64,000 bases of DNA from a virus (taxonomy: Duplodnaviria; Caudoviricetes). The stretch is taken from IMG/VR virus record IMGVR_UViG_3300028887_000078; one strand, 5' to 3'. The notes beneath the pieces were generated by a model that saw only the letters and a list, made by a program, of their open reading frames with translations, searched no databases and had not been told where the DNA came from. The translations under genes were made by a program, and so were the position numbers. Below, one piece after another: positions 5,993 to 38,403 of this stretch. Each line of letters starts with the position of its first letter. Position 1 is the first letter of the stretch.

Positions 5993-6209
5993 AAAAGACG
6001 CTGTTGTCGTTCCGAAGAAGTCTGATGAACAAATCAGATGGTGAATGTAGTGAAAATATCAACTTGAATACATTTGACTATGTTTAGTTTTTCGGAGTGG
6101 ATTATTCTCGACAACTCGAAGGACGGTTGCGTCAAAAACGGAATCGCACTTTTTTGTGCCTCACACATTTGCTTCACACTTATAAATAATAGAAATATAA
6201 AATTTCCGA

Positions 6210-9028: not shown

Positions 9029-12000
9029 ATGGATGACAATACCATCAAATTACTTTATGAGCAATATTTTGCGAGCGGTTCCGCGCTTACATTTGCCGAA
9101 TGGGTTGCTGAATGGGAACGCAAGCACGAACACGAAAGCGTTCACGTTGTCATCGACAATGCCGATGAAGTCGGTGTTTGTGATGGTGAGAACCCACACG
9201 GGGACAAAGAGTGCTGTCATCCAAAACAGGAATGTTGTCCGCCGCAACATCATTATACACCGAGAGGAAAAACAGGTATACAGGGTGTTCAAGGCATACA
9301 AGGTCCTGCTGGAATAGGGCAGGGCGGTTTGGGTTACACCGATATTGAAACGTTGCAGGGTTCTACAAATTATATAGATACCGACCATACGATTTATATA
9401 GGAGACACCGACACAGTAAAAGTGTGGGTTTCCTCACAGGGAATCATATATCTTGACGCAGTCGGTGGAGGTGGAAGTGGTTTGCAAGGAGTTCAGGGTA
9501 TTCGTGGTTTACAAGGCAGTCAGGGTGTTCAAGGTATACAAGGGTTTATCGGTATACAAGGTTTTGGTGGTCAGAATGGATTGCAGGGAGTTCAAGGACT
9601 TCAGGGTGTCGCAGGTCGGAGTGGTCTGCAAGGTCTGACAGGCGAACAGGGTCTGCAAGGCATCGCAGGTCAAAACGGTCTGCAAGGTCTGACAGGCGAA
9701 CAGGGTCTGCAAGGTTTGACAGGTTTGCAGGGTGAACAAGGTTTGCAGGGTGAACAAGGTTTGGCAGGTGAACAAGGTTTGCAGGGTGTTCAAGGTCTGC
9801 AAGGTTTGGCAGGTGAACAAGGTCTGCAAGGTTTGACAGGCGAACAAGGTCTGCAAGGTTTGGCAGGTGAACAAGGTCTGCAAGGTTTGACAGGCGAACA
9901 AGGTCTGCAAGGTTTGACAGGCGAACAAGGTCTGCAAGGTTTGGCAGGTGAACAAGGTCTGCAAGGTCTGACAGGCGAACAAGGTCTGCAAGGTTTGGCA
10001 GGTGAACAAGGTCTGCAAGGCATCGCAGGTCAGAGTGGTTTGCAAGGTCTGACAGGTGAACAAGGTTTACAAGGCATCGCAGGTCAGAGTGGTTTGCAAG
10101 GTCTGACAGGCGAACAAGGTCTGCAAGGCGTCGCGGGTGAACAAGGAACTCAAGGCATTCAAGGTATTACTGGTGAGCAAGGTGTACAGGGTACTCAAGG
10201 TTTGCAAGGTGTTCAAGGAAGTCAGGGAGAACAAGGAGTTCAAGGCACACAGGGAATACAAGGTATGCAAGGGTTGCAAGGTGTGCAAGGCACCATCGGT
10301 GAGCAAGGAGTGCAGGGTGTTCAAGGTATTCAAGGAGTTCAAGGCACACAAGGTGAACAAGGAGTTCGGGGACTTCAAGGTTTGCAGGGAACACAAGGTG
10401 AACAGGGTATTCAAGGTTCACAAGGCATTCAAGGACTGCAAGGAACCATCGGTATTCAGGGTGTTCAGGGAACACAAGGTGTTCAAGGGGTACAGGGTAC
10501 ACAAGGTGAACAGGGCATACAAGGACTTCAAGGTACCATTGGTGAACAGGGTGTTCAAGGAACACAAGGTTTGCAAGGAACACAGGGTACACAAGGTTTG
10601 CAGGGAGTTCAAGGTGAACAAGGAGTTCAAGGTCTGCAAGGAACACAAGGCACACAGGGTATTCAAGGCGCCGATGGTTTGCAAGGACTTCAAGGATTAC
10701 AGGGTATTGTCGGATTGCAAGGAGAACAAGGCATAACAGGTGAACAGGGTACGCAAGGTATTCAAGGAATTGAAGGTTTACAGGGTGTACAAGGTATCAC
10801 GGGTATGCAAGGTATTCAAGGTGAGAATGGCGTACAAGGAGTTCAAGGAACTATCGGTGAACAAGGTACACAAGGTATTCAAGGAATTGACGGTTTACAA
10901 GGACTTCAAGGTGAACAAGGTATTACAGGTTTACAAGGAACACAAGGCGTACAAGGTACGCAAGGTATTCAAGGCAATCAAGGTACACAAGGTATTGGAG
11001 GTTTGCAAGGAGTTCAGGGTGAACAAGGAGTACAAGGCATTCAAGGAACCGAGGGATTGCAGGGCATACAAGGTCTGCAAGGTTTGATTGGTGAGCAAGG
11101 TGTGCAGGGATTACAAGGAAATCAAGGAACACAAGGAGAGCAGGGAACACAAGGGTTGCAAGGCATACAAGGTGTTCAGGGACTTCAAGGATTACAAGGA
11201 AATCAAGGAACACAAGGTGTGCAGGGCATTCAAGGACTTGAAGGTTTACAGGGTGTTCGGGGAGTACAGGGTACACAAGGCACGCAAGGCGTTCAAGGCG
11301 AACAAGGAGTTCAAGGTATCACAGGTTTACAGGGCGTTCAAGGCATTCAAGGAACACAGGGAGTTCAAGGCGAACAAGGTGTGCAGGGTGAACAAGGAGT
11401 TCAGGGGACACAAGGTGAGCAGGGATTGCAAGGAGTTCAAGGAACCGATGGTATGCAAGGAGTTCAAGGTATTCAAGGTTTGCAAGGAATCGTCGGTTTG
11501 CAAGGTGAACAAGGTATCACGGGTGAACAAGGTGTTCAAGGTTTGCAAGGCATAACGGGTTTGCAAGGCATACAAGGTGTTCAAGGAACTATTGGTGAAC
11601 AAGGCGTTCAAGGATTGCAAGGTAATCAGGGAACACAAGGCACGCAAGGTCTTCAAGGTTTGCAGGGTATTCAAGGATTTGAAGGTCTGCAAGGGTTACA
11701 AGGAGAACAGGGTGAACAAGGTGTGCAGGGTGAACAAGGTGTGCAGGGCATTCAAGGCGAACAAGGTACGCAAGGAGTTCAAGGACTGCAAGGCGTTCAA
11801 GGTTTGCAAGGAGTTCAAGGTGAACAAGGAGTTCAAGGTGAACAAGGAGTTCAAGGCATACAAGGACTTCAAGGTAATCAAGGTGTGCAGGGAGAACAAG
11901 GCATTCAAGGTTTAAGAGGTTTGCAAGGAGTTCAAGGATTGCGAGGACTTCAAGGTTTACAAGGAGAACAAGGCACACAGGGTATTCAAGGGGTGCAAGG

Positions 12001-15000
12001 AGAACAAGGTGTTCAAGGTGAACAGGGCATACAGGGTGTGCAAGGTTTACAAGGAACTCGTGGATTACAAGGATTGCAAGGTGAACAAGGAGTTCAAGGC
12101 ACACAGGGTGTTCAGGGTGTTCAGGGAACACAAGGCATTCAAGGTTTGCAAGGTGTGCAGGGTACACAAGGCGTGCAAGGCGAACAAGGCACACAAGGTA
12201 TTCAAGGAGTACAAGGTGAACAAGGCACACAAGGTATTCAGGGTGTTCAGGGAACACAAGGCATTCAAGGATTACAGGGTATTCAAGGTGTGCAAGGCAC
12301 GCAGGGAGTTCAAGGTACACAAGGTTTACAAGGTTTACAAGGAGTTCAAGGCACGCAAGGTGTTCAAGGACTTCAGGGAATACAAGGAACCATCGGTGAA
12401 CAAGGAGTTCAAGGAACAACAGGTTTACAGGGCGTTCAAGGAGTTCAAGGAACACAAGGCACAAAAGGTTTACAAGGTATTCAGGGTACACAAGGAACAC
12501 AAGGTCTGCAAGGTGTTCAAGGAACGCAAGGCGCTCAAGGTCTGCAAGGCACAAAAGGATTACAAGGAGTTCAAGGTACGCAGGGCATACAAGGATTGCA
12601 AGGTGTTCAAGGCAGTCAGGGTACGCAGGGATTGCAAGGTGTTCAGGGAACACGAGGTATACAAGGTTTGCAGGGTGTGCAGGGCAGTCAAGGAACGCAA
12701 GGCGTTCAAGGTCATCGCGGACTTCAAGGTGTTCAAGGCACTCAAGGAAGTCAAGGCGCGCAGGGAATACAAGGTTTGCAGGGTGTTCAAGGCACGCAAG
12801 GTACTCAAGGTTTACAGGGTGTTCAAGGTACGCAGGGTACGAAGGGTCTGCAAGGTGTGCAAGGCAGTCGGGGAACACAAGGCATACAAGGTCTGCAAGG
12901 CGTTCAAGGCACACAAGGTTTGCAAGGAGTTCAAGGCGTTCGGGGCAGTCAAGGCACGCAAGGTTTGCAGGGCGTCCAAGGTCATCGCGGACTGCAAGGT
13001 GTTCAAGGTACGCAGGGTATACAAGGATTGCAGGGCGTGCAAGGCACACAAGGAACACAAGGATTGCAAGGTACGCAAGGCACTCAAGGAACACAAGGTC
13101 TGACTGGTTTGCAAGGTGTTCAGGGAACGCAAGGCACGCAGGGAACCAAAGGTTTACAAGGATTGCAAGGCGTTCAAGGCAGTCAGGGAACAAAAGGGAC
13201 GCAAGGTATTCAAGGTTTGCAAGGAGTTCAAGGCACTCAAGGAACACAAGGTCTGACTGGTTTGCAAGGTGTTCAGGGAACGCAAGGCACGCAGGGAACC
13301 AAAGGTTTACAAGGATTGCAAGGCATTCAAGGCGGTCAGGGAATCAAAGGTATGCAAGGTGTTCAGGGAAGTCAAGGCACGAAGGGATTGCAAGGCATTC
13401 AAGGCGGTCAGGGAATCAAAGGTATGCAAGGTGTTCAGGGAAGTCAAGGCACGCAGGGCACTCAAGGACTTCAAGGTGTGCAAGGCAGTCAAGGCAGTCA
13501 AGGAACACAAGGCACACAAGGAACCAAAGGTCTGCAAGGCATTCAAGGCAGTCAGGGAATCAAAGGTATGCAAGGTGTTCAGGGAAGTCAAGGCACGCAG
13601 GGCACTCAAGGACTTCAAGGTGTGCAAGGCACACAAGGAACCAAAGGACTTCAAGGTGTTCAGGGAACGCAGGGTACGCAAGGAACGCAAGGATTGCAGG
13701 GAGTTCAAGGTACACAAGGTACGCAGGGTGTTCAAGGCACGCAGGGAACGCAAGGTTTGCAAGGCGTTCAAGGTGTTCAAGGCACGCAGGGCAGTCAAGG
13801 AACACAAGGATTGCAGGGAATCAAAGGTCTGCAAGGCAGTCAAGGCACTCAAGGTCTGCAAGGTGTTCAGGGCAGTCAAGGCACTCAAGGCACAAAAGGT
13901 TTACAAGGTGTTCAGGGCAGTCAGGGTACACAAGGCACAAAAGGTTTGCAAGGTGTTCAGGGCAGTCAAGGTACACAGGGAACGCAGGGTGTTCAAGGCG
14001 TTCAGGGCAGTCAGGGGACGCAAGGCACGAATGGATTACAAGGTGTTCAAGGAAGTCAAGGTACACAGGGAACGCAGGGTGTTCAAGGCGTTCAGGGCAG
14101 TCAGGGGACGCAAGGCACGAATGGATTACAAGGTGTTCAAGGAAGTCAAGGTACGCAGGGTACTCAAGGATTACAGGGAGTTCAAGGCACTCAAGGTTTG
14201 CAAGGTGTTCAAGGAACGCAAGGAACCAAAGGACTTCAAGGCGTTCAAGGAACACAAGGAGCGAAAGGTCTGCAAGGTGTTCAAGGCACTCAAGGTATAA
14301 AAGGTTTGCAAGGCGTTCAGGGCAGTCAAGGCACGCAGGGATTGCAGGGTGTTCAAGGTGTGCAAGGTACGCAAGGCACCAAAGGTCTGCAAGGTGTTCA
14401 AGGCAGTCAAGGAACACAGGGAACTAAAGGTTTACAAGGTGTTCAGGGCAGTCAGGGAACGCAGGGTACTAAAGGATTGCAAGGTGTTCAAGGTAGTCAG
14501 GGTAGTCAAGGTCTGCAAGGTTTACAAGGTGTTCGGGGAACACAGGGAACACAGGGATTGCAAGGTGTTCAGGGTCTGCAAGGCACTCAAGGTCATCGCG
14601 GAACGCAAGGTGTTCAGGGAAGTCAAGGCGAGCAGGGATTGCAAGGCGTTCAAGGCATACAGGGAACTAAAGGTTTGCAGGGCATTCAGGGCAGTCAAGG
14701 AACACAAGGTACACAAGGCACAAAAGGATTGCAAGGTGTTCAGGGCAGTCAGGGAACGCAAGGTACACAAGGAACCAAAGGATTGCAAGGTGTTCAAGGC
14801 ACACAAGGTATGCAAGGTTTGACAGGTCTGCAAGGTGTTCAGGGTATAATCGGTCTGCAAGGTGTATCTGGCGAAAACGGACTTCAAGGTTTGCAGGGTA
14901 TCACAGGTTTGCAGGGAACCATCGGTGAAAACGGATTGCAGGGAATACAAGGTTCCGCAGGTCTGCAAGGTGTATCTGGCGAAAACGGACTTCAAGGCAT

Positions 15001-18000
15001 ACAAGGCATAGTCGGTCTGCAAGGAGTTCAAGGAGTTCAAGGAATACTCGGTTGTCAAGGCACAAGAGGTTTCCAAGGCATTCAGGGTATTCAGGGACTG
15101 CAAGGCATTCAGGGTATTCAGGGACTGCAAGGCATTCAGGGTATTCAAGGTATTCAGGGTGCTGGTTCTGAATTGATGACACTCATCACCTATGATGAGT
15201 TGGCAACTCTCGTGAACAGTTCCCAACTTGTGAAAGGTATGCAGTATCGCATAATAGACTATGAAACATTGATAGATGAATACTTGGTCTATGATTTGAG
15301 TACCGATTATTATGTCGGAGACGTTAATAGTCATCCAATGAATGATACAAACGATATTGTCACATTCAAGGAATATGACCTCGGACACCACGACTATGAC
15401 ATAATTGTGTTCGCGGACGATGAATCGACGCTCAATGAAAATGCGAGGGCGGTACAAAGGGGTGAAAATATGCTTGAAATATATTATGGCGGTAACTTGT
15501 ATCATATAAGACCTGGTGAAGTTCATATAGACGAAACAGGAACCTATGTCAATCTTGAAGTTCAAGACCCTGACACAGGTGAAACCACAACAATCCGCAT
15601 ACCTATAACAATCACGATTTCTATGATTTGGTATGTTGCCCCTGACAGCACCGCATATCCGTTGTATCAGAATGAGAACGGGGAATGGTATTATATCACA
15701 AACAGCGGTGACAAGAAAACTGTGGAACTCCCAAGCGGGGCAAAGGGGAAGGAAATTGGTGAAGGCGAAGGTGAATCTTCAGGTGTGGCTACTGAAGCGC
15801 AAGTGTTGTATAATGAAAAATTATACACCGTGTATAAATCGGACAAGGGTGAATTGTATTGGATAAATGTAGAAAAGGACGTTGTGTACCTCAACATCAG
15901 GTTCGACATTTCACCTGTGAACAAGTGGTGGTATAATGACAACGACACATATCCTGTCGGACTCTATCCTACATACAAAGATGACAAAGGGTATTATTCC
16001 ATCGCTTTTGATGTAAAGTCCGCAAAGTTTGTCAGAATCGACGTCAAGTATTTTAGTCCGCAAAGTGTATATGACATATATTATGACGGAAAGGTTTATG
16101 TGTTCAAAGACGAGGACATTAAAACGGGAGATGGAAAGCGTTTTGTAATGATAAATGAAGATAAATTTTTCCTAACCGATGATTCGTCACCGCTTTGGTA
16201 TGTTGATGAAAACTACAGAGTGTATCCTATTTTTTCTGATGGAAAAGATTTTGTCTATGTCGCCTCTGACGGGGTATCATATTCTGTGAAAGATTATATC
16301 GGAAAATTGTCAGAACTTGTTGAAACACCGCACGCACTGTATGATGGTGAGTGGTACGAGATACGCACAAAGGACAACTCGTATCTTATAGACACGAAAA
16401 ACAGCGGTGCCATTTATTTGGACTTCAACTTTGATATGTGCCACAGTCATAGATGGTTTTATATTAAAGAAGGTGGTGATTATAATATTGGTGCGTATTG
16501 TGTATATTTGGTTGATGGCAAATACATCATATACCCATTCCTTAAGAAAGAACTCGTTTATAAAAACGTTGACGTCACATCTTATTATAAAAATTCGGAA
16601 TACTATGATTTGGAAAATAAAAATGTGCATTACGAATTTGAATATGAAGATGTGGTCAAGGACGGTGACGGAACTCACGTCAGCATATCACTCAAAAAAG
16701 GAAGTTCGTCTGACGTTTATCTCACGCCTTACATTTCCGAAACTTGGTATGCAGATGAAAATCTGAAAATGTACCCTGTGTATTGGGATGAAGACGAGGA
16801 GTCGTATTATTACATATCGGACGACGGTTCCGTTGAATATGTTTTGTGGGAACTCAACGGCAGCGGTTTGGATGACGCTTTTGCTGTATTGTATGACGGA
16901 AACACATATTATGTTTCCACCACAACAGGATTCGATGAAGGCGCGATGTGGTACATAATGGTTGACGGAGAAAAACAATATCTTGATTTTGACTTTGGAA
17001 TCTCACCGACACATTATTGGCATTTTGACGATGCGACACACACTTACCCTGTTTATAGTTATGATGTCAATGGTGAATTGGGTTACTATTATATCGGCAC
17101 AGACGGAACTGTGGTTGACGTCACCGAAAACTATGTCAATGATAAATCACAAAGGGGTTTGACAAAAGGTGGATTGAATGCGGAAATGATGGAGGATAAC
17201 GCCATCCTGAAAACTTTAACAGGTTCCGCTTCCGCCCGCGATGCAAACGACGACTATTTTGACGGAGCGAACCTCCGCGCTTGGTGGTTGAAGTACACAT
17301 TGTTCAACGACAAGTCGACCTACAGTTGGGCAAGGGTTCCGACTGTCAATATGGGAAAGAAAGTTCCGATATTGTATGAGAATGGAAGCGAGAGGTATTA
17401 TGTGTATACAGGACAGAAATATATAGACGGCGCAAAGACATATCACATTTGGACATTCGGACAAACCGACTATTACATAGTGTATAGTTATGATGATATT
17501 GTAAATAACAGTCCTGTCCTGATTGACGTGCTTGATACGTCGTTCAATGTAGTGTACAGTTTCAAATCCTACAAGGTATGGTCAGGAGCACTTCATTTCT
17601 ACTTCGACGGGACATATAACGACACAACTACAAACACTTGGAACAACGGTCTCGGAACGCATTTCAAAATCGTGAATTACAAGACCGCTATGACGGCATC
17701 CACATCAATCCTAACCATAGAAGGAACCACCGTCGTGACGTTCGAGTGGGTAGAGGATATATATACAGACTTCGGAAAGGGTGTTGTGTTCCGTATGGAG
17801 GATGAACACGCCAATGTTATGCCTTATGATTTCAAGAACATTATGTTCGCGAGAATCGGTATGCGAGGCGCGGTCACTGCATTGCCGAATGGTAATTCAA
17901 GGTATATTGTTGTTGATGGTGGTGACTATCCTTATAACGTTTTTGATGTTATGTCGTATGACGAAAACCAAGGGAGTTGGTCATCGAACAACGGGTATTT

Positions 18001-21845: not shown

Positions 21846-21870
21846 CCATTATATTCAATAAAAAGTCGTT

Positions 21871-22473
21871 ATGGCGAGATTGAGCGATACGAGGATAGTG
21901 AACACAAACGGACAATCGGACGACGTGATTGGTTGTTGGAACATTGATATAGACGTTGTGCGGTATGATTCACCCTTTATTGTCAGATTGCTCCGCTTGC
22001 AATACAAACGCAGTGTGTATTCGTGCTTGAATGCCGCGTGCTATCTGTCGTGGATGAAGACCTATGGTAACGATATATCTGTGATATTGGAATATGAAGC
22101 GGCATTTAACCACAGATTGCCGAAACATCGCGATTTGTATTACAATTCAATCGGAGTCAGTCCTGTGTATACACTCTGCCTCAAACAGGATTTTTTCCAC
22201 AAAATCGTGAACGGGGAATGTGCGAGATTCGGGTTCGACCTTATATTGAAAGAGAGTACGACTGTTCCGTATGTGCATAAATATCCGGGCGGTTCACGTG
22301 TGGCGCTTTATGACTTCTGCGCGAACATCTACGGAAGGGACGCGGTCATACGCTATGTCGATGACGAATACATACCCTATGTGACATCGTGCAAATACAA
22401 ACTCGGCGTCGAGGAGAACACGGACGGCAACACTGTGTTCAGACTCACGCCTCTCAAGCGTCTTGATTTATAA
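21871..22473 (+). CDS. hypothetical protein, paralog of the next gene
   Basis: MARLSDT N-terminus; shares VP(Y/F)(V/I)H.YP.G...Y.FCAN.YGR.AV with 22485..23138. Confidence 0.75.
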   Translation: MARLSDTRIVNTNGQSDDVIGCWNIDIDVVRYDSPFIVRLLRLQYKRSVYSCLNAACYLSWMKTYGNDISVILEYEAAFNHRLPKHRDLYYNSIGVSPVYTLCLKQDFFHKIVNGECARFGFDLILKESTTVPYVHKYPGGSRVALYDFCANIYGRDAVIRYVDDEYIPYVTSCKYKLGVEENTDGNTVFRLTPLKRLDL

Positions 22474-22484
22474 AATGAATGAAT

Positions 22485-23138
22485 ATGGCAAGATTGAGTG
22501 ACACCAACATAGTGGATTTGTCAAGCCGCTCGGACGGAGTGTTCTACAAAAAGAATGTGGAGATAGAGGTCGTGAACTACAAAGCGCCGCTCATAAAGAG
22601 GTTGTTCGGGCGCACGCCTTCCGTGTATGACATCCTTTGGAACGCCTGCTATATAAAGTACAGGAGAGTCCCCACATACGTTGAGTTCGATTCGGTGTTT
22701 GCGTTGAGTGGTTCTATGCCGAGATTTTACTACAGTGAATTGCGGGTGACGCCGATTATGACAGTTCCGTTTGAAAAAAACGTGTTCAAGGACGCGGACA
22801 TCAACGGCGCACAGACGCTTTTGCTTGGGATTGAACTGAAAGACAACACGGTTGTTCCGTTCATACACGTCTATCCCGACGGGCGTGCGGGCATCACATA
22901 CACGTTCTGCGCCAACAACTATGGCAGGGAGGCGGTCGTGCAATATATAGAAAACGAATACATACCCTATTTGACGTCGGTCAAGTATTCGGTGTTGGCG
23001 GAAAACCTGCGGGAATCCGAGAATCCGACACCGGACTGCAAGTTCGACTACGACAGACTTGTGCTCACCCCAAAAAACCAAATAAAGGTGAAAGCAACCA
23101 AAATGTCTTGCAGAACGGACTATCCTGAAACAAATTAA
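22485..23138 (+). CDS. hypothetical protein, tandem paralog
   Basis: MARLSDT N-terminus; clear similarity to 21871..22473. Confidence 0.75.
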   Translation: MARLSDTNIVDLSSRSDGVFYKKNVEIEVVNYKAPLIKRLFGRTPSVYDILWNACYIKYRRVPTYVEFDSVFALSGSMPRFYYSELRVTPIMTVPFEKNVFKDADINGAQTLLLGIELKDNTVVPFIHVYPDGRAGITYTFCANNYGREAVVQYIENEYIPYLTSVKYSVLAENLRESENPTPDCKFDYDRLVLTPKNQIKVKATKMSCRTDYPETN

Positions 23139-23150
23139 ATCGAAAACAAT

Positions 23151-23720
23151 ATGGAAACAACTGACAAAATCTTTTTCACATCGGACATACACTTCTGTCA
23201 CGACAGGGAGTTCCTCTACAAACCGAGGGGTTTCAACTGCATTTCCGAAATGAACGAAGCAATCGTAAGGAGATGGAACAATGTTGTCGGAAAGGAGGAC
23301 ACTGTTTACATACTCGGCGACCTTATGCTGCGTGACAACGAGATGGGGGCGGAACTTCTTTGCGGACTGAACGGGATGAAGCGAATCATACGCGGCAACC
23401 ACGACACAGACAACAGGGTTGAACTCTACAGGTCTCTTCCGAATGTTCTCTCGGTGGAGGACGCCGCGTATTTCAAATGGAACGGATACAAGTTCTTCCT
23501 CACACACTTCCCCTGCCTGACGGGTTCCCTTGAGCACAGCGACGCGAAACACACACTCATCAACCTGTTCGGTCACACGCACTCAAAACTGCTGTTCTAT
23601 GAGGACAGACCCTATATGTACAACGTGGCGATGGACGCCCACGATTCAACGCCTGTCTGCATTTCGGAGATTGTGTCCGACATCGAGAAAAAGGTGGCGG
23701 AGTGCAAGGCGATGCTTTGA
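23151..23720 (+). CDS. calcineurin-like metallophosphoesterase
   Basis: SDIHF, LGDL, GNHD, THFP, GHTH motifs. Confidence 0.9.
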   Translation: METTDKIFFTSDIHFCHDREFLYKPRGFNCISEMNEAIVRRWNNVVGKEDTVYILGDLMLRDNEMGAELLCGLNGMKRIIRGNHDTDNRVELYRSLPNVLSVEDAAYFKWNGYKFFLTHFPCLTGSLEHSDAKHTLINLFGHTHSKLLFYEDRPYMYNVAMDAHDSTPVCISEIVSDIEKKVAECKAML

Positions 23721-24656: not shown

Positions 24657-24785
24657 TGCAATTCCGTTTCGTTTAATATAACAAAAAGTGATTGTTTTTT
24701 TAGCGATATATCAATGATATATCAAAGTTTTTCGGAATTTGCATTATATTCAAGAAAAGCATTGTGCAGATAACAACGAAACATT

Positions 24786-25576: not shown

Positions 25577-25609
25577 CGTAATTCCATTATATTCAAGAAA
25601 AACTATGTT

Positions 25610-26689: not shown

Positions 26690-27352
26690 ATGGGTTACAG
26701 CAAGTATTTTGAACCGACAAAGGAAGCGATTGAGGAGGTTCGCAAGTACGCATACCGAACAAACGACAATGTTATGCTGAAGTATCAGACGGAACTGTGC
26801 GTGTACTGTATGCTCGACCATTCTTCCGAAAGCATATCAGGCGTAATCAACAAAATCCTCGGATACCTTTCCCTCCTCAACTATGCGATGCGCGGCGTGT
26901 GCTACAAGATTGTTGCAGATGAATGCGAACGCGAAGGGAACTGTGAATTTTGCGGTTGGGTGTATTCCAAAAACACCCCTGAAACAACGGTTGAGGACGC
27001 AACCGAATATACATTGCAGTCACTGGTGGCATTCGCTATGGTGGTAAAGACACCTGATTTTTTCGGACATTCGGAGGACTTCTATGAAAAGAAAAGCGAG
27101 ATTATGTCAGCAATAGAGGATTACTGCGAAGTATGCTCCGTATGTGCGGACTTCGAGATAATCGGCATTTTCGATAAGATGTGTCCGTACAAAGACGAAG
27201 ATGAAAATGAAGATGAGGTTGTCACAGAAGCGCACTCGGACGGTTGCGGGGAGTGTGAAACGTGTTGCGGGGAGAATTTGCACGGTGCCGATTATGACAG
27301 CGATGTGACAAATTCCTGTGTTGAATGGAATGAAACTTCAAGAACCGAATAG
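26690..27352 (+). CDS. hypothetical acidic, Cys-rich protein
   Basis: Start reassigned to ATG 26690 (MGYSKYF) after an AT-rich intergenic region. Confidence 0.6.
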   Translation: MGYSKYFEPTKEAIEEVRKYAYRTNDNVMLKYQTELCVYCMLDHSSESISGVINKILGYLSLLNYAMRGVCYKIVADECEREGNCEFCGWVYSKNTPETTVEDATEYTLQSLVAFAMVVKTPDFFGHSEDFYEKKSEIMSAIEDYCEVCSVCADFEIIGIFDKMCPYKDEDENEDEVVTEAHSDGCGECETCCGENLHGADYDSDVTNSCVEWNETSRTE

Positions 27353-27355
27353 TCT

Positions 27356-27757
27356 ATGTCATTCACAGGAAGTGGAGGTGCATTGGTCGGCAATGTAGGA
27401 TTGCGCAACTATGGGTATGACTGTATAATCTACGGAAAGGTTCCCAATATGTTCAAGGACAAAAACAAGTATTGGAAGCAACTCTGCGACGACTATGTCG
27501 CAAGGTGCGAAACGTCCGAACTATACAATGTCATCCGCAGCGGCAGCGAAATCGTGTCGTATTTCAGTGTCTTGTTCATAGAGTGCATCGGAAATGAATA
27601 CGGAATCGCAATCAAATTCCAAAGACAGTTGTGCACTGAACAGTCTGAAAACTATGCCGCGTCCAAACTGCAAACTTCGGATGTGGTCATCGTCCCCTAT
27701 GTCGTACACGCAGGAAACGGTTATGAAATAGAATACTTTGTAGTAAATGCCAAATGA
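27356..27757 (+). CDS. hypothetical protein
   Basis: 133-aa ORF in an operon-like run. Confidence 0.55.
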   Translation: MSFTGSGGALVGNVGLRNYGYDCIIYGKVPNMFKDKNKYWKQLCDDYVARCETSELYNVIRSGSEIVSYFSVLFIECIGNEYGIAIKFQRQLCTEQSENYAASKLQTSDVVIVPYVVHAGNGYEIEYFVVNAK

Positions 27758-27785
27758 TTCCATTATATTCAACAAAACATAAACT

Positions 27786-29177
27786 GTGAATTGGAAAAAA
27801 CAACTTACGAAACTCGGAGTGACCGACAACGTGGCGAGAAGCAGACTCCTTGCGTTCATTGAAAAGGGGTGCAGGCGTATGGGGGACGATGAAATCACAT
27901 CCCTTGTATGCGACCTGATTGGGTTTCCTGAAAAATATGCCGAGTGCAACGACGTTCAGTTGGCGTCGCTTGCGGCGCTTTTCAGCAAGGAACCTTGCTT
28001 GGCGGAACATCCCATACTTGACAAACCGAAACCGTACAGGTCGTTCTGTTCATCCGATGCAGACCCGCTTGCGGTGTCGCAGATGGATATGGCGATGAGA
28101 CTTCCTGTTTCCGTTGCGGGTGCGCTTATGCCAGACGCCCACGCAGGGTACGGACTTCCGATAGGCGGAGTCCTTGCCACTGACGGTGTGGTAATTCCCT
28201 ATGCCGTAGGACTTGACATAGGTTGCGGTATGGGACTTTCGCTCTATGAGTGCGACCCATCCTATATAGAAAAAAACAGGGAAACCATCGTGAATTGCCT
28301 TCGCGACAACACCGCGTTCGGGATGGACGGCGTGCTTCGCTCCAAGCATTACGACAAACTTTTCGACAGAAAGGAGTTTTCCGAAATACCGATACTGAAA
28401 AAACTCCGTGACAAGGCGGTTCGTCAACTTGGCACAAGCGGGGGCGGAAATCATTTCGTTGACGTTTGTATTGCGAACCTCAACGAAGGAAACCCGTTCG
28501 GGAAGCAGGGAGAGTTTGCGGCAATTCTTTCCCATTCTGGAAGCAGGGGGTTCGGCGCCGCAATCGCGGAGCACTTCACGAATATTGCGAAGGAAACCTG
28601 CCGACTTCCTAAAGCGGCGGGGATGTTCGCTTGGTTGGATATGGGTTCGGAGGACGGTATCTTGTATTGGACTTGTATGAACATCGCCGCCGAGTATGCC
28701 TCACTGTGCCACGAGATAATCCACAACAACGTCGGTTCCTGTATGCGTTCAAAACCGTTTGCTTATGTCCACACACATCACAACCTCGCTTGGTTGGAGG
28801 AAGTTGACGGGTGCCGTTTGGTTGTGCACAGGAAAGGCGCGTCGCAAGCGCACAAAGGTCAGTGCGTCGTGATACCTTCGAGTATGTGCGACTATGGCGT
28901 CATAGGCGTGGGACTCGGTTGCAGGGATTCCCTTGCATCGGCAAGTCACGGCACGGGGAGGGTTATGTCGAGACAGGACGCGAGAAACACAGTCAGCAGG
29001 CATTTCCTCAAAAAACACCTTGCCGAGAACAGGGTGACGCTTGTCGGCGGTAGCGTGGAAGAGGCGCCGCAGGCATACAGGAAAATGGACGATGTTCTCC
29101 CTATGCTCAAGGAGTGTGTCGAGGTTGTCGGAAAAATAGAACCTAAAATCTGTATAATGAGTGAAAGCGATGAATAA
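27786..29177 (+). CDS. rtcB: RtcB-family RNA ligase (PrfH-associated)
   Basis: MPDAHAGYG.PIG, DIGCG, LGTSGGGNHF, HSGSRG, HHN, HRKGA, SHGTGR, EEAP.AY motifs. Confidence 0.95.
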   Translation: MNWKKQLTKLGVTDNVARSRLLAFIEKGCRRMGDDEITSLVCDLIGFPEKYAECNDVQLASLAALFSKEPCLAEHPILDKPKPYRSFCSSDADPLAVSQMDMAMRLPVSVAGALMPDAHAGYGLPIGGVLATDGVVIPYAVGLDIGCGMGLSLYECDPSYIEKNRETIVNCLRDNTAFGMDGVLRSKHYDKLFDRKEFSEIPILKKLRDKAVRQLGTSGGGNHFVDVCIANLNEGNPFGKQGEFAAILSHSGSRGFGAAIAEHFTNIAKETCRLPKAAGMFAWLDMGSEDGILYWTCMNIAAEYASLCHEIIHNNVGSCMRSKPFAYVHTHHNLAWLEEVDGCRLVVHRKGASQAHKGQCVVIPSSMCDYGVIGVGLGCRDSLASASHGTGRVMSRQDARNTVSRHFLKKHLAENRVTLVGGSVEEAPQAYRKMDDVLPMLKECVEVVGKIEPKICIMSESDE

Positions 29178-29799
29178 CGACGCAAACTATTATGTTCTCT
29201 TGACTTCGGGTAGGGGTCCAGTCGAATGCACACGCGTGGTTAACCTTGTCACCAAAGAGTTCGTCTGTTCCGCAAAACTGCACGGCGTTGCCTGCGGCGT
29301 GATTGACAACGAACCTGCGGGGGGCGGGCGCAACTATTCCATCAGGTTCGCGGTCAGCGGCGACGGAAAGTCGCTTTCGGATTTCAGAAACGAATGGGAG
29401 GGGAGCATCCTTTGGGTGGCAAAACGAAATCCGTTCAGACCTCATCACAAAAGAAAGAATTGGTTTGTCGGAATCCGTTTTTTCAAACCACTTGAACGGA
29501 ATGAAGTGAAAGACGCGGACATTGTGTACGACACGATGCGTTCGGGCGGGCACGGCGGTCAGAACGTGAACAAGGTCGAAACGTCGGTCAGGGCGACTCA
29601 CGTTCCGAGCGGGTTGAGCGTGGTTGCGTCGGACGAAAGGTCGCAGTACAGGAACAAGGAAATCGCAAGGGAAAGACTTCTTGCCAAACTCTCCGAACTT
29701 CGGGAAATCGAGGAACTCGGAGAGGAGCGCTGTATGTGGATGTCCCACAACACGCTTGAGCGCGGAAACCCGGTCAAGAAATTCACAGGAGACCTTTGA
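29161..29799 (+). CDS. prfH: peptide chain release factor H (ribosome rescue)
   Basis: LTSGRGPVEC N-terminal motif, NPFRPHHKRKNWFVG, SGGHGGQNVNK (GGQ), ERSQYRNK; overlaps the end of rtcB. Confidence 0.92.
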   Translation: MKAMNNDANYYVLLTSGRGPVECTRVVNLVTKEFVCSAKLHGVACGVIDNEPAGGGRNYSIRFAVSGDGKSLSDFRNEWEGSILWVAKRNPFRPHHKRKNWFVGIRFFKPLERNEVKDADIVYDTMRSGGHGGQNVNKVETSVRATHVPSGLSVVASDERSQYRNKEIARERLLAKLSELREIEELGEERCMWMSHNTLERGNPVKKFTGDL

Positions 29800-29800
29800 T

Positions 29801-30295
29801 ATGAGAATAACACAGAGCGAAAACATCAGGAATACGGTCGCTGGCGACAACCTTTCCGTCCCGCTTGACATAAGCGTGGAACTCGGAACGAAGGGAATTT
29901 GGAAGCATTGCATATACGACGTGCTCAACGGAGAACTTCTGTTTGCCAAAGGTCACACACGCATTTGCGTCACGAGTGTTTGCTATAATTATGACTTGGC
30001 CCGTTTGGGGTGTGAAACGGAGACCAATTACGTTTCCATATTTTATGTCATCGAGGGTGCGAAGTACAGACCCGACGGGTATGCGGTTCTGACGGGCAGA
30101 CTTGTGAGCGTCACAGACAGTTCGGGAAAGCCCTATGAAAGGGACAGTATGTTCCGCTTTGTCTATGAAAACCTCCTGTGCGGAAACTTTTTATTCAACG
30201 CAGAACTGAAGATACCCACGTTCGAGATTGTCGGCGCGGTCTATGACATCTTGAAGGAGGAGAACATCCCGCCCATAAACCCGATATGCCTGTAG
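29801..30295 (+). CDS. hypothetical protein, paralog of the next gene
   Basis: Start reassigned to ATG 29801 (MRITQSE); shares PLDI, TNYV, RFVY.NLL.GNF, IPT.EI..AVYD with 30298..30798. Confidence 0.7.
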   Translation: MRITQSENIRNTVAGDNLSVPLDISVELGTKGIWKHCIYDVLNGELLFAKGHTRICVTSVCYNYDLARLGCETETNYVSIFYVIEGAKYRPDGYAVLTGRLVSVTDSSGKPYERDSMFRFVYENLLCGNFLFNAELKIPTFEIVGAVYDILKEENIPPINPICL

Positions 30296-30297
30296 TT

Positions 30298-30798
30298 ATG
30301 AGAATATGCGACTGCAACAACCTTTCTGAAAAAATTACGGACGGCGAAGTTCCGCTTCCGCTCGACATAGTCGTCCCGTCTTGGGACAAGGACGGAAAGG
30401 GTATTGTCGAACGCGTGGTTTCAAACAGCACATACTTGGGGGAATCTGGTATGCAGGTTGCTGTCAAGAGAATGAAGAACCATTACCGTAACATCGGCAG
30501 TGGTGTAGAACAATTCCGTTACACGTCGACGAACTACGTCCTTGTGTTCTACAGGATTGAGCGCCGTGTGTTCAACGACGACGGCAGCGTAACGATGAAG
30601 GGCGTCCTGTACAGGGGCGATGGACTTCGGATGATTCGTGAACCATACAGTCTTTACAGGTTCGTTTACACCAACCTGCTCGAAGGGAACTTCAAGTTGT
30701 CCATTGTGCTTGGAATCCCCACCATTGAAATAACAAATGCCGTATATGACGCCTCCGCCGAGGAGGACGCCTGTGCAGACAAAAATATGCAGTTATGA
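30298..30798 (+). CDS. hypothetical protein, tandem paralog
   Basis: MRICDC start; similar to 29801..30295. Confidence 0.7.
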   Translation: MRICDCNNLSEKITDGEVPLPLDIVVPSWDKDGKGIVERVVSNSTYLGESGMQVAVKRMKNHYRNIGSGVEQFRYTSTNYVLVFYRIERRVFNDDGSVTMKGVLYRGDGLRMIREPYSLYRFVYTNLLEGNFKLSIVLGIPTIEITNAVYDASAEEDACADKNMQL

Positions 30799-31346
30799 GA
30801 ATATCGGAAAGTCAAATTGGAAACGACGCAGAGAACCCCAATGTCATACGGATTGTCGGGAACATTCCGTCCGCTTCGTCGGAGGAACTTGAAAGGTACT
30901 TTTCTGAAAGGTGCGCTACCTGTTCCAACATCTTCACCGTGCTTGACAATACGTCTTGCGTCGGTTACCCGTTTGACGCACACATTGTTTTTGCAGTCCA
31001 TTCATACGAGGTTGTCAATGAAGGCGGGTTTTACGCCGTTTGGGGCGAGTTTGCCAATTTCGGCAATATCACACCGCAGGCAAGGAAATATGCCGAATAT
31101 CTCAAGAAAAAGGTGCTTGACGGGTGCTATTGGTTGGACATCCACGTTGTGTACATCTATGACGCGGACGCGCCTGACAAGTTCATCAAGGAAATAGAGT
31201 GTGTCGACCTGATTGTCACGCAGACCAAGACGACCGACAATACGCACGAGACTTCCTGTATGAGATTTTCCGAACGAACTGTTGACAATCTGACACAATA
31301 TATCGGCGATATATCTGAAATGTTCGGTTTCCATTATATTCAATAA
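30795..31346 (+). CDS. hypothetical protein (MRISES N-terminus)
   Basis: ATGA overlap with the previous gene. Confidence 0.6.
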   Translation: MRISESQIGNDAENPNVIRIVGNIPSASSEELERYFSERCATCSNIFTVLDNTSCVGYPFDAHIVFAVHSYEVVNEGGFYAVWGEFANFGNITPQARKYAEYLKKKVLDGCYWLDIHVVYIYDADAPDKFIKEIECVDLIVTQTKTTDNTHETSCMRFSERTVDNLTQYIGDISEMFGFHYIQ

Positions 31347-31357
31347 AAAGTGAAATT

Positions 31358-32638
31358 ATGACGGAAGAACGCTTCATTGAAATAACAGGCAGACTTGCCG
31401 AACTCCTGAAAGGAACGAAGTATGAGTCGCACGTCTTTGCGGTCGGCGGAAGTGTGAGGGACTATGTGATGCACACGGAAATCAAGGACATCGACCTTGT
31501 GGTGGACATTGAGAACGGGGGTATCGGACTTGCGCAGTATCTTTCAAACAAGAACCTTCTTGCATACCCCCCTGTGATTTATCCGACCTACGGAACTTGT
31601 ATGTTCAGACTGTCCGATTTCCCTGATGTCGAACTTGAGGCGGTTCACACGAGAGGCGAGGAGTACAGGGACAGAAAGTCAAGAAACCCGCAGACGCACT
31701 TTGCCTGTATTGGCGAGGACGCCGTCCGCAGGGACTTGACCATCAACGCCCTTTATTACGACATTTTCAACAGGAATGTTCTTGACCCGACAGGTCGTGG
31801 ACTTTCCGACATAGAGAACCGTGTCATCCGCACGAGCAACGAGAACCCGAATGCGGTTTTCGACGACGACCCCTTGCGGATACTCCGTGTAATCCGTTTT
31901 TCGGCGAAGTATGGGTGGAGGATTGAGGAGACCACCTATGCCGCTATATCCCGTTACAAGGACAGACTTTCAATCATCTCCCGTGAAAGAATCACACAGG
32001 AGTATGTGAATATGCTCAACACCAAGAACCCGCATTTCGCTATGGGGAATGTCTCATCGCTCGGTCTGTGGGATGTTGTGACGGGAGCGGAGATGACCGA
32101 CCGTATGAAGAAGAACGTGACGAAGGCGTTGTTTGAGTGCGCGAAGGATGACCGTCCCCTATACACGAAACTCGCCGTCATTTACAACGAGTTTGACGAG
32201 CGGTGCGTGTATGACATCCTGCACAAGTTGAAGTTTTCAAACACTGACGCGAAGAATATCTCCAAACTCATCGGACACCTCCACGACTTTGACACTGATT
32301 GCAGCGACAAGAACATAAGACTGACACAGGTCAGGTTCCGCAGGGCAAGGTTCTATGAACTTGTGTGGACGATGCAGGCGCTCGGTATGGAGAATGCGAA
32401 CATCGTATTCCGCAAGACAAATACGAGCGTCTGTGATATGTTCGGGTACAAACTCCCGCTTGACGGCAATGACATCATCAGGGAACTTGGAATCGGCAGC
32501 GGTGCTATGGTCGGTGCGATACTTGATGAGATGCTGCACGTCGTGTGTGAAAACCCGCTTGTCACGAGAGATGAACTGCTCGGTTTGTTCAGGGGGCGCG
32601 TAACCAATCTTGAAAGTATTGACAAAAATTGTGAATAG
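31358..32638 (+). CDS. cca: class II tRNA nucleotidyltransferase (CCA-adding enzyme family)
   Basis: VGGSVRD, DIDLV, RRDLTINAL, DDPLRILRVIRF, ISRERI; no evident HD domain. Confidence 0.9.
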   Translation: MTEERFIEITGRLAELLKGTKYESHVFAVGGSVRDYVMHTEIKDIDLVVDIENGGIGLAQYLSNKNLLAYPPVIYPTYGTCMFRLSDFPDVELEAVHTRGEEYRDRKSRNPQTHFACIGEDAVRRDLTINALYYDIFNRNVLDPTGRGLSDIENRVIRTSNENPNAVFDDDPLRILRVIRFSAKYGWRIEETTYAAISRYKDRLSIISRERITQEYVNMLNTKNPHFAMGNVSSLGLWDVVTGAEMTDRMKKNVTKALFECAKDDRPLYTKLAVIYNEFDERCVYDILHKLKFSNTDAKNISKLIGHLHDFDTDCSDKNIRLTQVRFRRARFYELVWTMQALGMENANIVFRKTNTSVCDMFGYKLPLDGNDIIRELGIGSGAMVGAILDEMLHVVCENPLVTRDELLGLFRGRVTNLESIDKNCE

Positions 32639-33056: not shown

Positions 33057-34529
33057 CCTTGAAAATCTAATAAAATCTACGAAAAACTTGTAAAAACTAA
33101 CTGATATAAATATATTATAGTTTCAGACTATTTATAAATATAATGAACGGAAGTAGCAAGACGTTCAAATTATTCAAAAGAAGATATATAGGGATAACTC
33201 CATCTCGGTTCTTGCTACGTTTTATTTACCGAGCGGATGCGTCCCTTTTTTATTGACTATGTTGCGAGGAATCAAGGTAAGGTTATATCCCAACAAGGAA
33301 CAGCAGGCAAGACTGAATCAAGTTCTTGGTTGCTATAGATTTGTGTATAACAAGACACTTGAACTCAAACGCAATGTCTATGACGAGGACAAGACCAACC
33401 TCAAACTAACCGACATTTCAAAGTGGTTTCACGGAACGCTGTTAAAAGATGAAAACTATGCTTGGTTGCAGGAACAGAACACAAAGGTGATGAAACAGTC
33501 AATCCGTCAGATGCTTGACGCTTATTCAAACTTCTTCAAACAGCACAAGGGATTCCCGAAGTTCAAGTCAAAGAAGGACAACCAATCGGCATTGTTTCCA
33601 TACGAGGCGATTTCCAAACGCAACACATTCAACGAAAGAAAAATAACTCTCACTAAAGACCTGAAGAACATCCGTTTCAGATGTTCCGACTTGTATTTCA
33701 AGAGACTTCAAGACTACAAAGATTGTATAAGGAGTGCAACCGTTTCGAGAACCAAGAGCGGCAACTACTTCCTTTCAATCCTTGTTGACATCCCGAAGGA
33801 AGAACTTATCAAGTTCAAGCATACCAAGCAGTGTGTCGGAATAGACCTCGGAGTCAAGGATTTTGTAATCACAAGTGACGGCGAGGTCTTTGAAAACAAA
33901 CACTTTTTCAAAAAGCAAGAAAAGAAAGTCAAGCGATTGCAGAAGCAACTGTCAAAGAAAGTAAAAGGTTCACACAACCGAGAGAAACAGCGTGTCAGAA
34001 TTGCAAAGGCGTTTGAACGACTTACCAACCAAAAGGATGCTTATATTCATTCGGTTGTGAATGCTTTGTTGTCTTTGTACGACTTGGTTTGTATAGAGGA
34101 TTTGAATGTGCAGGGAATGGTGAAAAACCACAAATTAGCAAAAGCAATTCAAGAGGTCGGTTTCTACAAGTTCAAGCAGATTTTGCTTGACAAAGCAAGT
34201 GTCAACGGCAAGCAGGTTGTCTTGGTTGACCGTTTCTATCCGAGCAGCAAGACCTGCCACAAGTGCGGATATGTGAAGAAAGATTTGACTTTGAGTGACC
34301 GTGAATGGGTCTGCCCTATTTGCGGTGAGCATCTTGAAAGGGACATAAATGCTGCAATCAACATATTGATTGAAGGATTAAGAATAATAGGTGTCCGTAG
34401 CACCGAATTTACGCTTGCGGAGAACCCAACCGTGGATGACCGTCTGGCAACAGACCTAAAAAGCGGTGGTTCGTTGAAACAAGAAAGAAGGACTAATAAT
34501 TCCAATTTTTATTAAATTTTTCTATACGG
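33057..34529 (+). mobile_element. tnpB-only IS200/IS605/IS607-type element (ends approximate)
   Basis: Intact tnpB with no tnpA; AT-rich ends ccttgaaaatctaataaaat.. and ..atttttattaaatttttctatacgg are imperfectly inverted. Confidence 0.6.
33259..34515 (+). CDS. tnpB: TnpB RNA-guided endonuclease
   Basis: HTH KVRLYPNKEQ; RuvC GIDLG, IEDL, RDINAAINI; Zn ribbon CHKCG..CPICG. Confidence 0.95.
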   Translation: MLRGIKVRLYPNKEQQARLNQVLGCYRFVYNKTLELKRNVYDEDKTNLKLTDISKWFHGTLLKDENYAWLQEQNTKVMKQSIRQMLDAYSNFFKQHKGFPKFKSKKDNQSALFPYEAISKRNTFNERKITLTKDLKNIRFRCSDLYFKRLQDYKDCIRSATVSRTKSGNYFLSILVDIPKEELIKFKHTKQCVGIDLGVKDFVITSDGEVFENKHFFKKQEKKVKRLQKQLSKKVKGSHNREKQRVRIAKAFERLTNQKDAYIHSVVNALLSLYDLVCIEDLNVQGMVKNHKLAKAIQEVGFYKFKQILLDKASVNGKQVVLVDRFYPSSKTCHKCGYVKKDLTLSDREWVCPICGEHLERDINAAINILIEGLRIIGVRSTEFTLAENPTVDDRLATDLKSGGSLKQERRTNNSNFY

Positions 34530-34597
34530 TTTGGGTGGTTGAATGATTGTTGCGCAGATTTGATTTTTTCCATTATATTCAATAAAAACAAACTGCT

Positions 34598-37119: not shown

Positions 37120-38403
37120 CGGAATTATCCCTTTAGTCTTGTAAAATGTGAGTAATATAAATATAGTATAGTATTTCAATCAGATGGAGAGGACGTACAC
37201 ATATAAGTTCAGGTTATATCCGAACAAAGAACAAGAGATTTATCTCGTCAATGTGTTTGGATGTTGCAGGCTTGTATATAACCATTTCCTCAATGAAAAG
37301 AAAACCCAATACAATGAATCCAAAACAAGTGATTCGTACAATGTTCAATCAGGTAAATTAACTGAACTTCGTAAAACGAATGAATTTGAGTTCTTGAATG
37401 CTGTTCCTTTGCAGGTATTACAATGCAGTTTGAGGAATATGCACAATGCTTATGACAACTTCTACAAACACAAAAGTTCCTATCCGAAGTTCAAGAACAG
37501 AAGGAACAAACAGTCGTTTAAGTTACCACAAGAACAGTGTTTTAGAATAAAAGATAACAAACTTTACATTCCTAAACTAAAAAGCGGAATTGACATTGTA
37601 ATGGAACGTAAGATTATAGGCAAAATATGCTTTGCCACAATCTCAAAGAATAAGGCGGGCAAATACCACATAGCAATTACTGTTAAACAGGATTACATAC
37701 CTTATGGAAAGACCAACCGTTCTGTCGGTCTTGACCTCGGCATAAAGGATTTCGTCATCACAAGTGACGGGGTTAAATACAAGAACCATAGAAGTATAAT
37801 AAGGACATTAAAACGTAAACTAAAACATAACCAAAGACATCTGTCAAGGAAAGTTTATGGTAGCAAGCGATACGAAAACCAAGTGTTGAAATGCAACCGA
37901 ATCTATCAGAAGATAACAGATGCCAAAACTGACTACATTCATAAGATAACCACAGAACTTGTCAGACACTACGATGTGATAAAGGTTGAAGACCTAAACA
38001 TTAAAGGGATGATGAAGAACCACAAGTTGGCAGAGGCAATATCAGAATGTAATTGGTATCAGTTCATTCAAACTCTTGAATATAAGTGTTTGTGGAATGA
38101 AAAAGAACTTATAAAGATTGACCGTTTCTATCCGTCAAGTCAGATGTGCAGTGAATGTGGTTATGTTGAAAAAAAAGTCAGAAACCTAAATGTGAGGGAA
38201 TGGACTTGCTGTAACTGCGGTTGTCATCACGACCGTGATGTAAATGCAGCAAGAAACATTTTGAAATATAATTCGGCAAGGAATGTCGAAAACAGTCGTG
38301 GAGTTGTATGCAAACTGAATGAAAGAACCAAATCAGTTGGTGATTGTTCGGACAACTGTGAAGCGATTATTGAACTTTTACAAGACTAAAAGGGATAATT
38401 CCG
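37120..38403 (+). mobile_element. non-autonomous TIR cassette carrying tnpB
   Basis: TIRs 37120-37144 and 38378-38403 (differ by one T indel); flanking direct repeats taaataat (37112-37119) and taaataaa (38404-38411); same TIR as 1253..2005. Confidence 0.85.
37184..38389 (+). CDS. tnpB: TnpB RNA-guided endonuclease
   Basis: YKFRLYPNKEQ, GLDLG, VEDL, CSECG..CCNCG, DRDVNAARNI; stop codon lies inside the right TIR. Confidence 0.95.
   Translation: MERTYTYKFRLYPNKEQEIYLVNVFGCCRLVYNHFLNEKKTQYNESKTSDSYNVQSGKLTELRKTNEFEFLNAVPLQVLQCSLRNMHNAYDNFYKHKSSYPKFKNRRNKQSFKLPQEQCFRIKDNKLYIPKLKSGIDIVMERKIIGKICFATISKNKAGKYHIAITVKQDYIPYGKTNRSVGLDLGIKDFVITSDGVKYKNHRSIIRTLKRKLKHNQRHLSRKVYGSKRYENQVLKCNRIYQKITDAKTDYIHKITTELVRHYDVIKVEDLNIKGMMKNHKLAEAISECNWYQFIQTLEYKCLWNEKELIKIDRFYPSSQMCSECGYVEKKVRNLNVREWTCCNCGCHHDRDVNAARNILKYNSARNVENSRGVVCKLNERTKSVGDCSDNCEAIIELLQD

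Follow-up and report, generated by a model that had tools for sequence, protein, structure and literature searches.

A phage-encoded PrfH-RtcB pair of Bacteroidales origin as a candidate unit for rescue and repair of translation

Here, we propose that a large uncultured phage carries a functional rescue and repair unit consisting of the RNA ligase RtcB and peptide chain release factor H (PrfH). The genes lie in a 64,000-nucleotide (nt) stretch of the IMG/VR virus record IMGVR_UViG_3300028887_000078 (Duplodnaviria; Caudoviricetes), the whole of which was analysed and is called the window below. In our proposal, to which we give a probability of roughly 0.55, the pair is functional, was captured whole from a Bacteroidales bacterium, and stands under a phage promoter class that it shares with the gene of a CCA-adding enzyme. 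As a phage representative of a known system the pair is real and well conserved, and it clearly stems from bacteria by a single acquisition, while what it does for the phage is something that we infer by analogy with its bacterial relatives. The features on which the argument turns are these:

27760..27772, + strand: motif CCATTATATTCAA, 13 nt (extended form TTCCATTATATTCAAnAAAA), 14 nt 5' of the rtcB GTG; presumed phage promoter of a non-late class
27786..29177, + strand: rtcB, 3'-phosphate/5'-OH RNA ligase, GTG start, 463 amino acids (aa); long-form Bacteroidota lineage linked to prfH
29170..29799, + strand: prfH, peptide chain release factor H, 209 aa from the ATG at 29170 (212 aa if read from the GTG at 29161)

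A sequence-only reading of this DNA had recognised overlapping rtcB and prfH genes with intact catalytic motifs at these positions, and profile matches, residue alignments, and the 8-nt overlap of the two genes (ATGAATAA) bear this out. The overlap would be 17 nt if prfH began at GTG 29161, but ATG 29170 is the likely start since the closest relatives begin there (209 aa). PrfH scores 194.8 bits on the NCBIfam equivalog model TIGR03072 (cut-off 166.65), stays far under the cut-offs of the models for release factors 1 and 2 (RF1, RF2) and ArfB, and matches the sequences of solved PrfH structures at 3e-45 (9mor) and 8e-37 (7sa4). With its 209 aa it lacks release factor domain 1, aligning only with RF2 residues ~120-325 (RF2 domains 2-4). 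The catalytic GGQ motif is present (residues 132-134 of the 212-aa reading), is invariant in the PrfH alignment, and aligns with Q122 of Escherichia coli PrfH (EcPrfH).

The contacts through which EcPrfH recognises a cut decoding centre have been described (Tian et al. 2022, PMC9304027): the A1493 base is sandwiched by G10-P12 and R189, the ribose is stacked on by R88, the 3'-phosphate is bound by R83, H86, and R88, the h18/S12 patch includes K89 and N90 (contacting h18), H85 stacks on C1054, and C1914 is held by R52, S53, R181, and H184. We checked 14 EcPrfH positions, namely 13 of these ribosome-contact residues and the catalytic Q122, by pairwise alignment to 7sa4 chain 8, and 12 are kept in the window's PrfH (G11, P12, R52, R83, H85, H86, R88, K89, N90, Q122, H184, and R189). 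All of the residues that bind the A1493 3'-phosphate and ribose are among them, and the stretch RPHHKRKNW of the window aligns with RPHHGRKNW of E. coli.

The rtcB product matches Pfam PF01139 at E=3e-70. In a HMMER alignment to Pyrococcus horikoshii RtcB (1uc2), its D117, D144, and C147 fall on D65, D95, and C98, its N222/H223, H250, and H332 on N202/H203, H234, and H329, and its H388 on the GMP-accepting H404; these metal-binding and GMP-accepting residues are invariant across a 31-sequence alignment. An AlphaFold2 model built on the same alignment has a mean predicted local distance difference test (pLDDT) score of 90, and a Foldseek search with it returned the human and archaeal RtcB structures 8odp, 4dwq, and 1uc2 (E ~1e-28 to 1e-30, TM-score ~0.7) over ~445-453 alignment columns against the 463-residue model. 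As modelled, then, the fold is confirmed and the active site is complete.

In bacteria, PrfH and RtcB are described as partners in a counter-conflict unit that spreads horizontally (PMC6514570; PMC9304027). The window's pair is like the RtcB2-PrfH operon of E. coli ATCC 25922 (Tian et al. 2022, PMC9304027; also PMC9223846) in its rtcB-prfH order and overlapping ends, in the GGQ motif, in the pocket for the A1493 3'-phosphate (the equivalents of R83, H86, R88, and R189), in K89/N90 and H85, and in the full RtcB active site. It is unlike that operon in being phage-encoded behind a phage motif, in the distance of its 463-aa RtcB, in the three orphan reading frames (ORFans) and the CCA enzyme that follow it, and in being known here from its genes alone.

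Full-length homologues at 41-56% identity are also found paired in Bacteroidota, in Pedobacter, Mucilaginibacter, Chitinophaga, Sphingobacterium, and metagenome-assembled genomes (MAGs) of Bacteroidales (contigs and genomes L003-L008, L175, and L178), with the same gene order and overlap, and metagenomic proteins by the thousands match both genes full-length at 52-58% identity. These pairs differ from the phage copies in being carried on bacterial chromosomes, frequently close to an integrase or a second RtcB, whereas the phage copies sit on long stems; they also differ in a signature, with the Bacteroidales bacterial PrfHs of L003 and L175 reading RPWHRRKNW and the phage copies the E. coli-like RPHHKRKNW. 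A 465-aa Bacteroidota RtcB lineage lies directly 5' of prfH in all 16 bacterial loci examined, which comprise Sphingobacteriaceae, Chitinophagaceae, a Bacteroidaceae MAG, genomes of that MAG's order, and the metagenome contigs L002, L175, and L178; in the reference genomes this arrangement is seen in Pedobacter, Mucilaginibacter, Sphingobacterium, Chitinophaga, Edaphocola, and the Bacteroidaceae MAG. So constant a linkage of the long-form RtcB to prfH indicates functional coupling. Two of the contigs are clearly bacterial by their other genes: L178 has UvrC and cytidylate kinase nearby, and L175 has leucine-rich repeat proteins, a second RtcB (404 aa), NADAR, and an integrase. In L175 (6732-10618) the 404-aa RtcB is followed by the 464-aa PrfH-linked form, adjoining NADAR, an AAA_14/DUF4143 ATPase, and the integrase, a setting that is probably a mobile island.

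Trees of RtcB and of PrfH from 18 paired loci, with Sphingobacteriia and Chitinophagia as the outgroup, are congruent. In both, a phage clade (the window, the related contig L177, and P0005/P0124) is sister to the bacterial L002/L178 (support 100/99 for RtcB and 93/89 for PrfH), and the next clade, with L003 and L175 (100/100 and 100/99), is nested among other genomes of the order. Because the trees agree and place the phage clade inside Bacteroidales, a single capture brought in both genes together from a Bacteroidales donor, and it happened long ago, to judge by the length of the phage stems (0.72 and 0.59 substitutions per site). A phylogeny against Bacteroidota prfH-rtcB pairs thus traces the phage copies to a single acquisition.

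The locus is genuine phage DNA, with hallmark genes in the window, and its carrier, large and uncultured, is a phage of Bacteroidales. Among the window's products are a baseplate wedge protein, a portal protein (phrog_213, 9e-64), NrdD, and two TnpB proteins. The portal is most similar to those of huge uncultured phages (LR756500.1, 47.5%; others, 32-37%), with the portals of Prevotella Lak phages at 34%. A blastn search of window positions 27000-31000 against GenBank phages returned 0 matches.

The sequence-only reading had also placed the pair behind a phage-type promoter motif. We recover it as CCATTATATTCAA, of which the window contains 7 copies at no more than 1 mismatch (0.15 expected by chance); every copy is on the + strand and stands 13-33 nt before a start codon. 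Its copies, all of which precede non-structural genes, are as follows:

497-509, 21846-21858, 24741-24753, 25584-25596, 27760-27772, 31331-31343, and 34570-34582, + strand: copies of CCATTATATTCAA in the window
31331..31343, + strand: second CCATTATATTCAA copy of the block, 15 nt 5' of the CCA-enzyme gene

A distinct box, TATAAATA, is present 12 times on the + strand and 7 times on the - strand (for example at 6181, 8996, and 54202) and sits 30-45 nt before the genes for baseplate, collagen-like fibre, portal, DUF285, and tnpB. This box is probably the late promoter class and, since it precedes the baseplate, fibre, and portal genes, CCATTATATTCAA marks a non-structural expression class.

Related phages have retained this arrangement. 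Contigs from two other samples encode RtcB and PrfH at 75-78% amino-acid identity in the same gene order (metallophosphoesterase, ORFans, rtcB, prfH, two ORFans, CCA enzyme). In a third contig, L177, an upstream open reading frame (ORF) at 83% identity is followed by the motif, which is thus retained 5' of the rtcB GTG, then by rtcB (86%) and prfH (88%), and then by the first ORFan (39%). Between the window and L177, the ratio of non-synonymous to synonymous substitution rates (dN/dS, Nei-Gojobori) is 0.156 for rtcB (dS 0.59) and 0.086 for prfH (dS 0.93), and purifying selection on both genes is strong. The G+C content at third codon positions (GC3) is 0.59 and 0.63 for the pair, within the 0.51-0.69 of the other phage genes. 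The earlier suggestion that the phage has domesticated the pair therefore agrees with a phage-specific motif, synteny in diverged relatives, strong purifying selection, and phage-like GC3.

What surrounds the pair? The neighbouring genes are as follows:

23151..23720, + strand: calcineurin-like metallophosphoesterase, 189 aa (PF12850, PF00149), conserved 5' of rtcB in related phage contigs
29801..30295, + strand: ORFan, 164 aa, beginning 1 nt past the prfH stop; probably co-transcribed
30286..30798, + strand: ORFan, 170 aa, paralogue of ORF 29801-30295 with a 10-nt overlap with it
30795..31346, + strand: ORFan, 183 aa, with a 4-nt overlap with ORF 30286-30798
31358..32638, + strand: CCA-adding tRNA nucleotidyltransferase-like enzyme, 426 aa (phrog_2244, 1e-48), 1.5 kb 3' of the pair

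The CCA-type enzyme has the domains PF01743 (PolyA_pol head, 1e-21) and PF12627 (RNA-binding, 6e-8), and its gene occupies the same position in the related phage contigs. It matches NF009814 at 4e-42, under that model's cut-off, and reaches no NCBIfam equivalog cut-off; by its sequence, the specificity may be for CCA, for A addition, or for poly(A). The first ORFan shares 34% identity with its paralogue at 30286-30798 and gave nothing in Pfam, PHROG, or NCBIfam and no usable match in the Atlas; its homologue also follows prfH in L177, at only 39% identity as against the 86-88% of rtcB and prfH. The ORFans at 30286..30798 and 30795..31346 likewise have no family matches in Pfam, PHROG, or NCBIfam. 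Several ORFans of the block begin with the N-terminus M-R-I-S/T, and further tandem ORFan paralogues stand at 21871-22473 and 22479-23138 (37.5% identity). Shortly 3' of the repair block are the two TnpB-like genes, at 33253-34515 and 37184-38389 (phrog_506, E ~1e-118 to 1e-124).

The metallophosphoesterase could possibly be an RNA end-healing enzyme, and its membership of the module is uncertain. Its homologues lie a few kb from release-factor-like genes in five other viral contigs, an association that may be recurrent, the five having been counted without a control:

L131:6768-7361: metallophosphoesterase homologue
L151:1145-1636: metallophosphoesterase homologue
L095:10599-10919: metallophosphoesterase homologue
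L114:5860-6255: metallophosphoesterase homologue
L117:9499-9666: metallophosphoesterase homologue

PrfH is found in other uncultured phages as well. IMG/VR holds 15 loci, some of them duplicates, with a PrfH-type gene bearing GGQ, most with the RxxHxRKNW signature, and all three that were tested pass TIGR03072. An RtcB gene adjoins prfH or lies ~1 kb 5' of it in 11 of the 15, and the other four have none at that place. The window's portal found no match in ten PrfH-bearing IMG/VR contigs, so those phages are unrelated to it or too distant, a result that says nothing on the nature of the contigs. One contig that is unrelated, L001 (IMGVR_UViG_3300010167_000012; CheckV completeness 75%), encodes a PrfH scoring 243 bits on TIGR03072, grouped at 10004-15387 with a metallophosphoesterase (phrog_1649) and a CCA-type enzyme, and has no RtcB across its whole 217.7 kb. 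In L084 (2125-4079) and L166, the PrfH belongs to the Bacteroidota clade (51% identity to that of the window) and its RtcB partner to another lineage (29%), which indicates that the RtcB partner is swappable.

Among GenBank phages (50,697 records), RtcB is present in 703 records, and PrfH-like proteins of at least 38% identity were found only in two small, unannotated, possibly bacterial fragments; no verified complete GenBank phage genome showed PrfH. MT838156.1 is a 5.6-kb unverified fragment with a partial rtcB and prfH. Pseudomonas phage Y1 (OQ572403.1, unverified; L181) was considered as a PrfH carrier and rejected, its protein being an ordinary RF2 with the SPF motif; this RF2 lies beside a GGDEF-like gene in GC-rich DNA, and that part of the record looks like bacterial chromosome. 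In Mycobacterium phage EniyanLRS (L180, KY385381.1, 64634-66489), an annotated RF-1 domain protein of 113 aa neighbours an RNA-binding protein and a phosphoesterase as well as a tRNA array, so that ArfB-like hydrolases do occur in a comparable setting among cultured actinophages.

Our literature searches found no paper describing a phage PrfH, in agreement with the earlier remark that such a pair had not been characterised in phages. Among the repair and rescue genes named in a survey of jumbo phages are RtcB, CCA enzymes, and PTH2; PrfH does not appear there (Iyer et al. 2021, PMC7824862). The logic of mending host translation is shared by T4 Pnkp/Rnl1, phage RtcB, CCA enzymes, the PTH2 of jumbo phages, and the short RF-1 domain proteins of Wildcat-type mycobacteriophages; none of these described genes is PrfH, the peptidyl-tRNA hydrolase of the jumbo-phage survey being PTH2.

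What, then, would the pair do for the phage? The evidence suggests that it may repair the host translation machinery during infection, and the analogy with E. coli RtcB2-PrfH allows a proposal as to what it acts on, when it is expressed, and where the cut would come from (a host defence or an incoming toxin). A nuclease would cut the 16S rRNA between A1493 and G1494 in the course of infection, and translating ribosomes would stall. PrfH would then hydrolyse the peptidyl-tRNA by means of its GGQ motif, whereupon the subunits could separate, and RtcB would religate the 16S rRNA in the free 30S subunit with GTP and Mn2+. In parallel, the downstream CCA enzyme, of the same expression class, would mend the 3' ends of tRNAs.

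Several points weigh against this proposal. The phage copies are known from their sequences, and their function is argued by analogy; likewise, CCATTATATTCAA is taken as a promoter, and its firing time proposed, from its position. Two of the EcPrfH contacts in the C1914 pocket are changed (S53 to F and R181 to W). The window's RtcB scores 122.7 bits on TIGR03073 (release_rtcB), under the 271.8 cut-off, as does every PrfH-linked RtcB tested (the bacterial L175 and L004 (Pedobacter) and the short forms of the viral L088 and L084), and in the tree a very long branch lies between the long-form RtcB and the short ones linked to PrfH. The curated model thus does not place the window's enzyme in RtcB2, and it is counted a member by the conserved linkage to prfH and not by sequence family. 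Given the low score and the long branch, the 30S specificity of E. coli RtcB2 is not transferable, and for the window's enzyme it is an assumption drawn from that linkage. Some phages carry prfH without rtcB, so religation is not always part of the phage strategy. In the bacteria, prfH is sporadic (12 of the 401 sampled genomes of the Bacteroidaceae MAG's order), which leaves the selective agent obscure. Finally, we know of no decoding-centre nuclease that serves as an anti-phage defence. The cytotoxic domain of colicin E3 (PF09000) was looked for in the 401 genomes of the order and gave 0 matches, but the control genomes were equally silent, so that this result speaks neither for nor against. 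Of the sequence-only reading, then, the genes as named, their intact motifs, and the phage nature of the locus stand, while its claim that the pair counters an rRNA-cleaving defence goes further than the evidence, no such nuclease having been identified and the RtcB falling below the curated RtcB2 model.

More tentatively, one may imagine that some Bacteroidales cut their own 16S decoding centre against large phages, and that the phages answer with a PrfH-led kit in a 'translation repair' class together with the CCA enzyme. If this were true, the presence of prfH without rtcB in several unrelated phages would mean that freeing the stalled ribosome, and not religation, is the step that the phage must supply.

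The main rival to a decoding-centre substrate, and one that we consider doubtful, is a kit for tRNA repair and general rescue, in which RtcB would reseal tRNAs cut by anticodon nucleases, the CCA enzyme would rebuild their 3' ends, and PrfH would free ribosomes jammed by broken tRNA or mRNA, with 16S rRNA not being a substrate at all. RtcB is common in cultured phages (the 703 GenBank records above), adjoins a tRNA array in mycobacteriophage Estes (the sole such locus inspected), and is usually read in phages as a tRNA repair enzyme (PMC7824862). The CCA-adding enzyme gene of the window has the same promoter motif as rtcB, the window's RtcB lies outside the curated RtcB2 family, and in the original proposal of Burroughs and Aravind the targets of PrfH are, quite generally, ribosomes that cleaved RNAs have jammed (PMC6514570). 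However, the PrfH pocket residues for the cut 16S end are all kept, and EcPrfH is active only on ribosomes with that lesion (PMC9304027). Moreover, the donor-type L175 has a separate 404-aa RtcB beside the long form, and it is the PrfH-linked one that the phage kept, and a tRNA scan of the window found no tRNA genes, nor did an Rfam scan give any match.

Protection against toxins from outside the cell (bacteriocins, contact-dependent or type VI effectors, or the ribotoxins of competing phages), as opposed to host abortive infection, seems to us unlikely. In its favour, colicin E3, CdiA-CT(ECL), and E3-like toxins, all of them inter-bacterial weapons, are the sole attackers whose damage RtcB2-PrfH is known to reverse (PMC9304027; PMC9223846), and the bacterial homologues sit in variable, integrase-flanked regions. 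Nonetheless, lytic infection is short, so that such protection would seem to exert only weak selection for a pair held at dN/dS ~0.1, and no lysogeny genes were seen near the locus; between toxins from outside and a counter-defence role, the present evidence does not separate.

That the pair merely rides along as a passenger and plays no part in infection, whether recent host DNA, an assembly chimera, or contamination, is very improbable and we reject it: its G+C of 52-53% does exceed the window mean of 45.7%, and its nearest relatives outside the phage clade are bacterial, but it has the GC3 of the other phage genes, the company of phage hallmark genes, a phage-specific motif 14 nt 5' that is kept in L177, a gene order shared, at 75-88% identity, with contigs of three further samples, long stems that speak for an old capture, and strong purifying selection.

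To date, the only role described for PrfH-RtcB2 ribosome repair is in bacteria, as a defence against ribotoxins of the bacteriocin type. The capture of the pair by a phage, its own promoter class, and the strong selection on it imply that cuts in the decoding centre occur during phage infection of Bacteroidales. If so, one would suspect in abundant gut and rumen bacteria either a class of anti-phage defence not yet described or an exposure to toxins, and the known RNA-repair repertoire of phages would widen from tRNA to rRNA.

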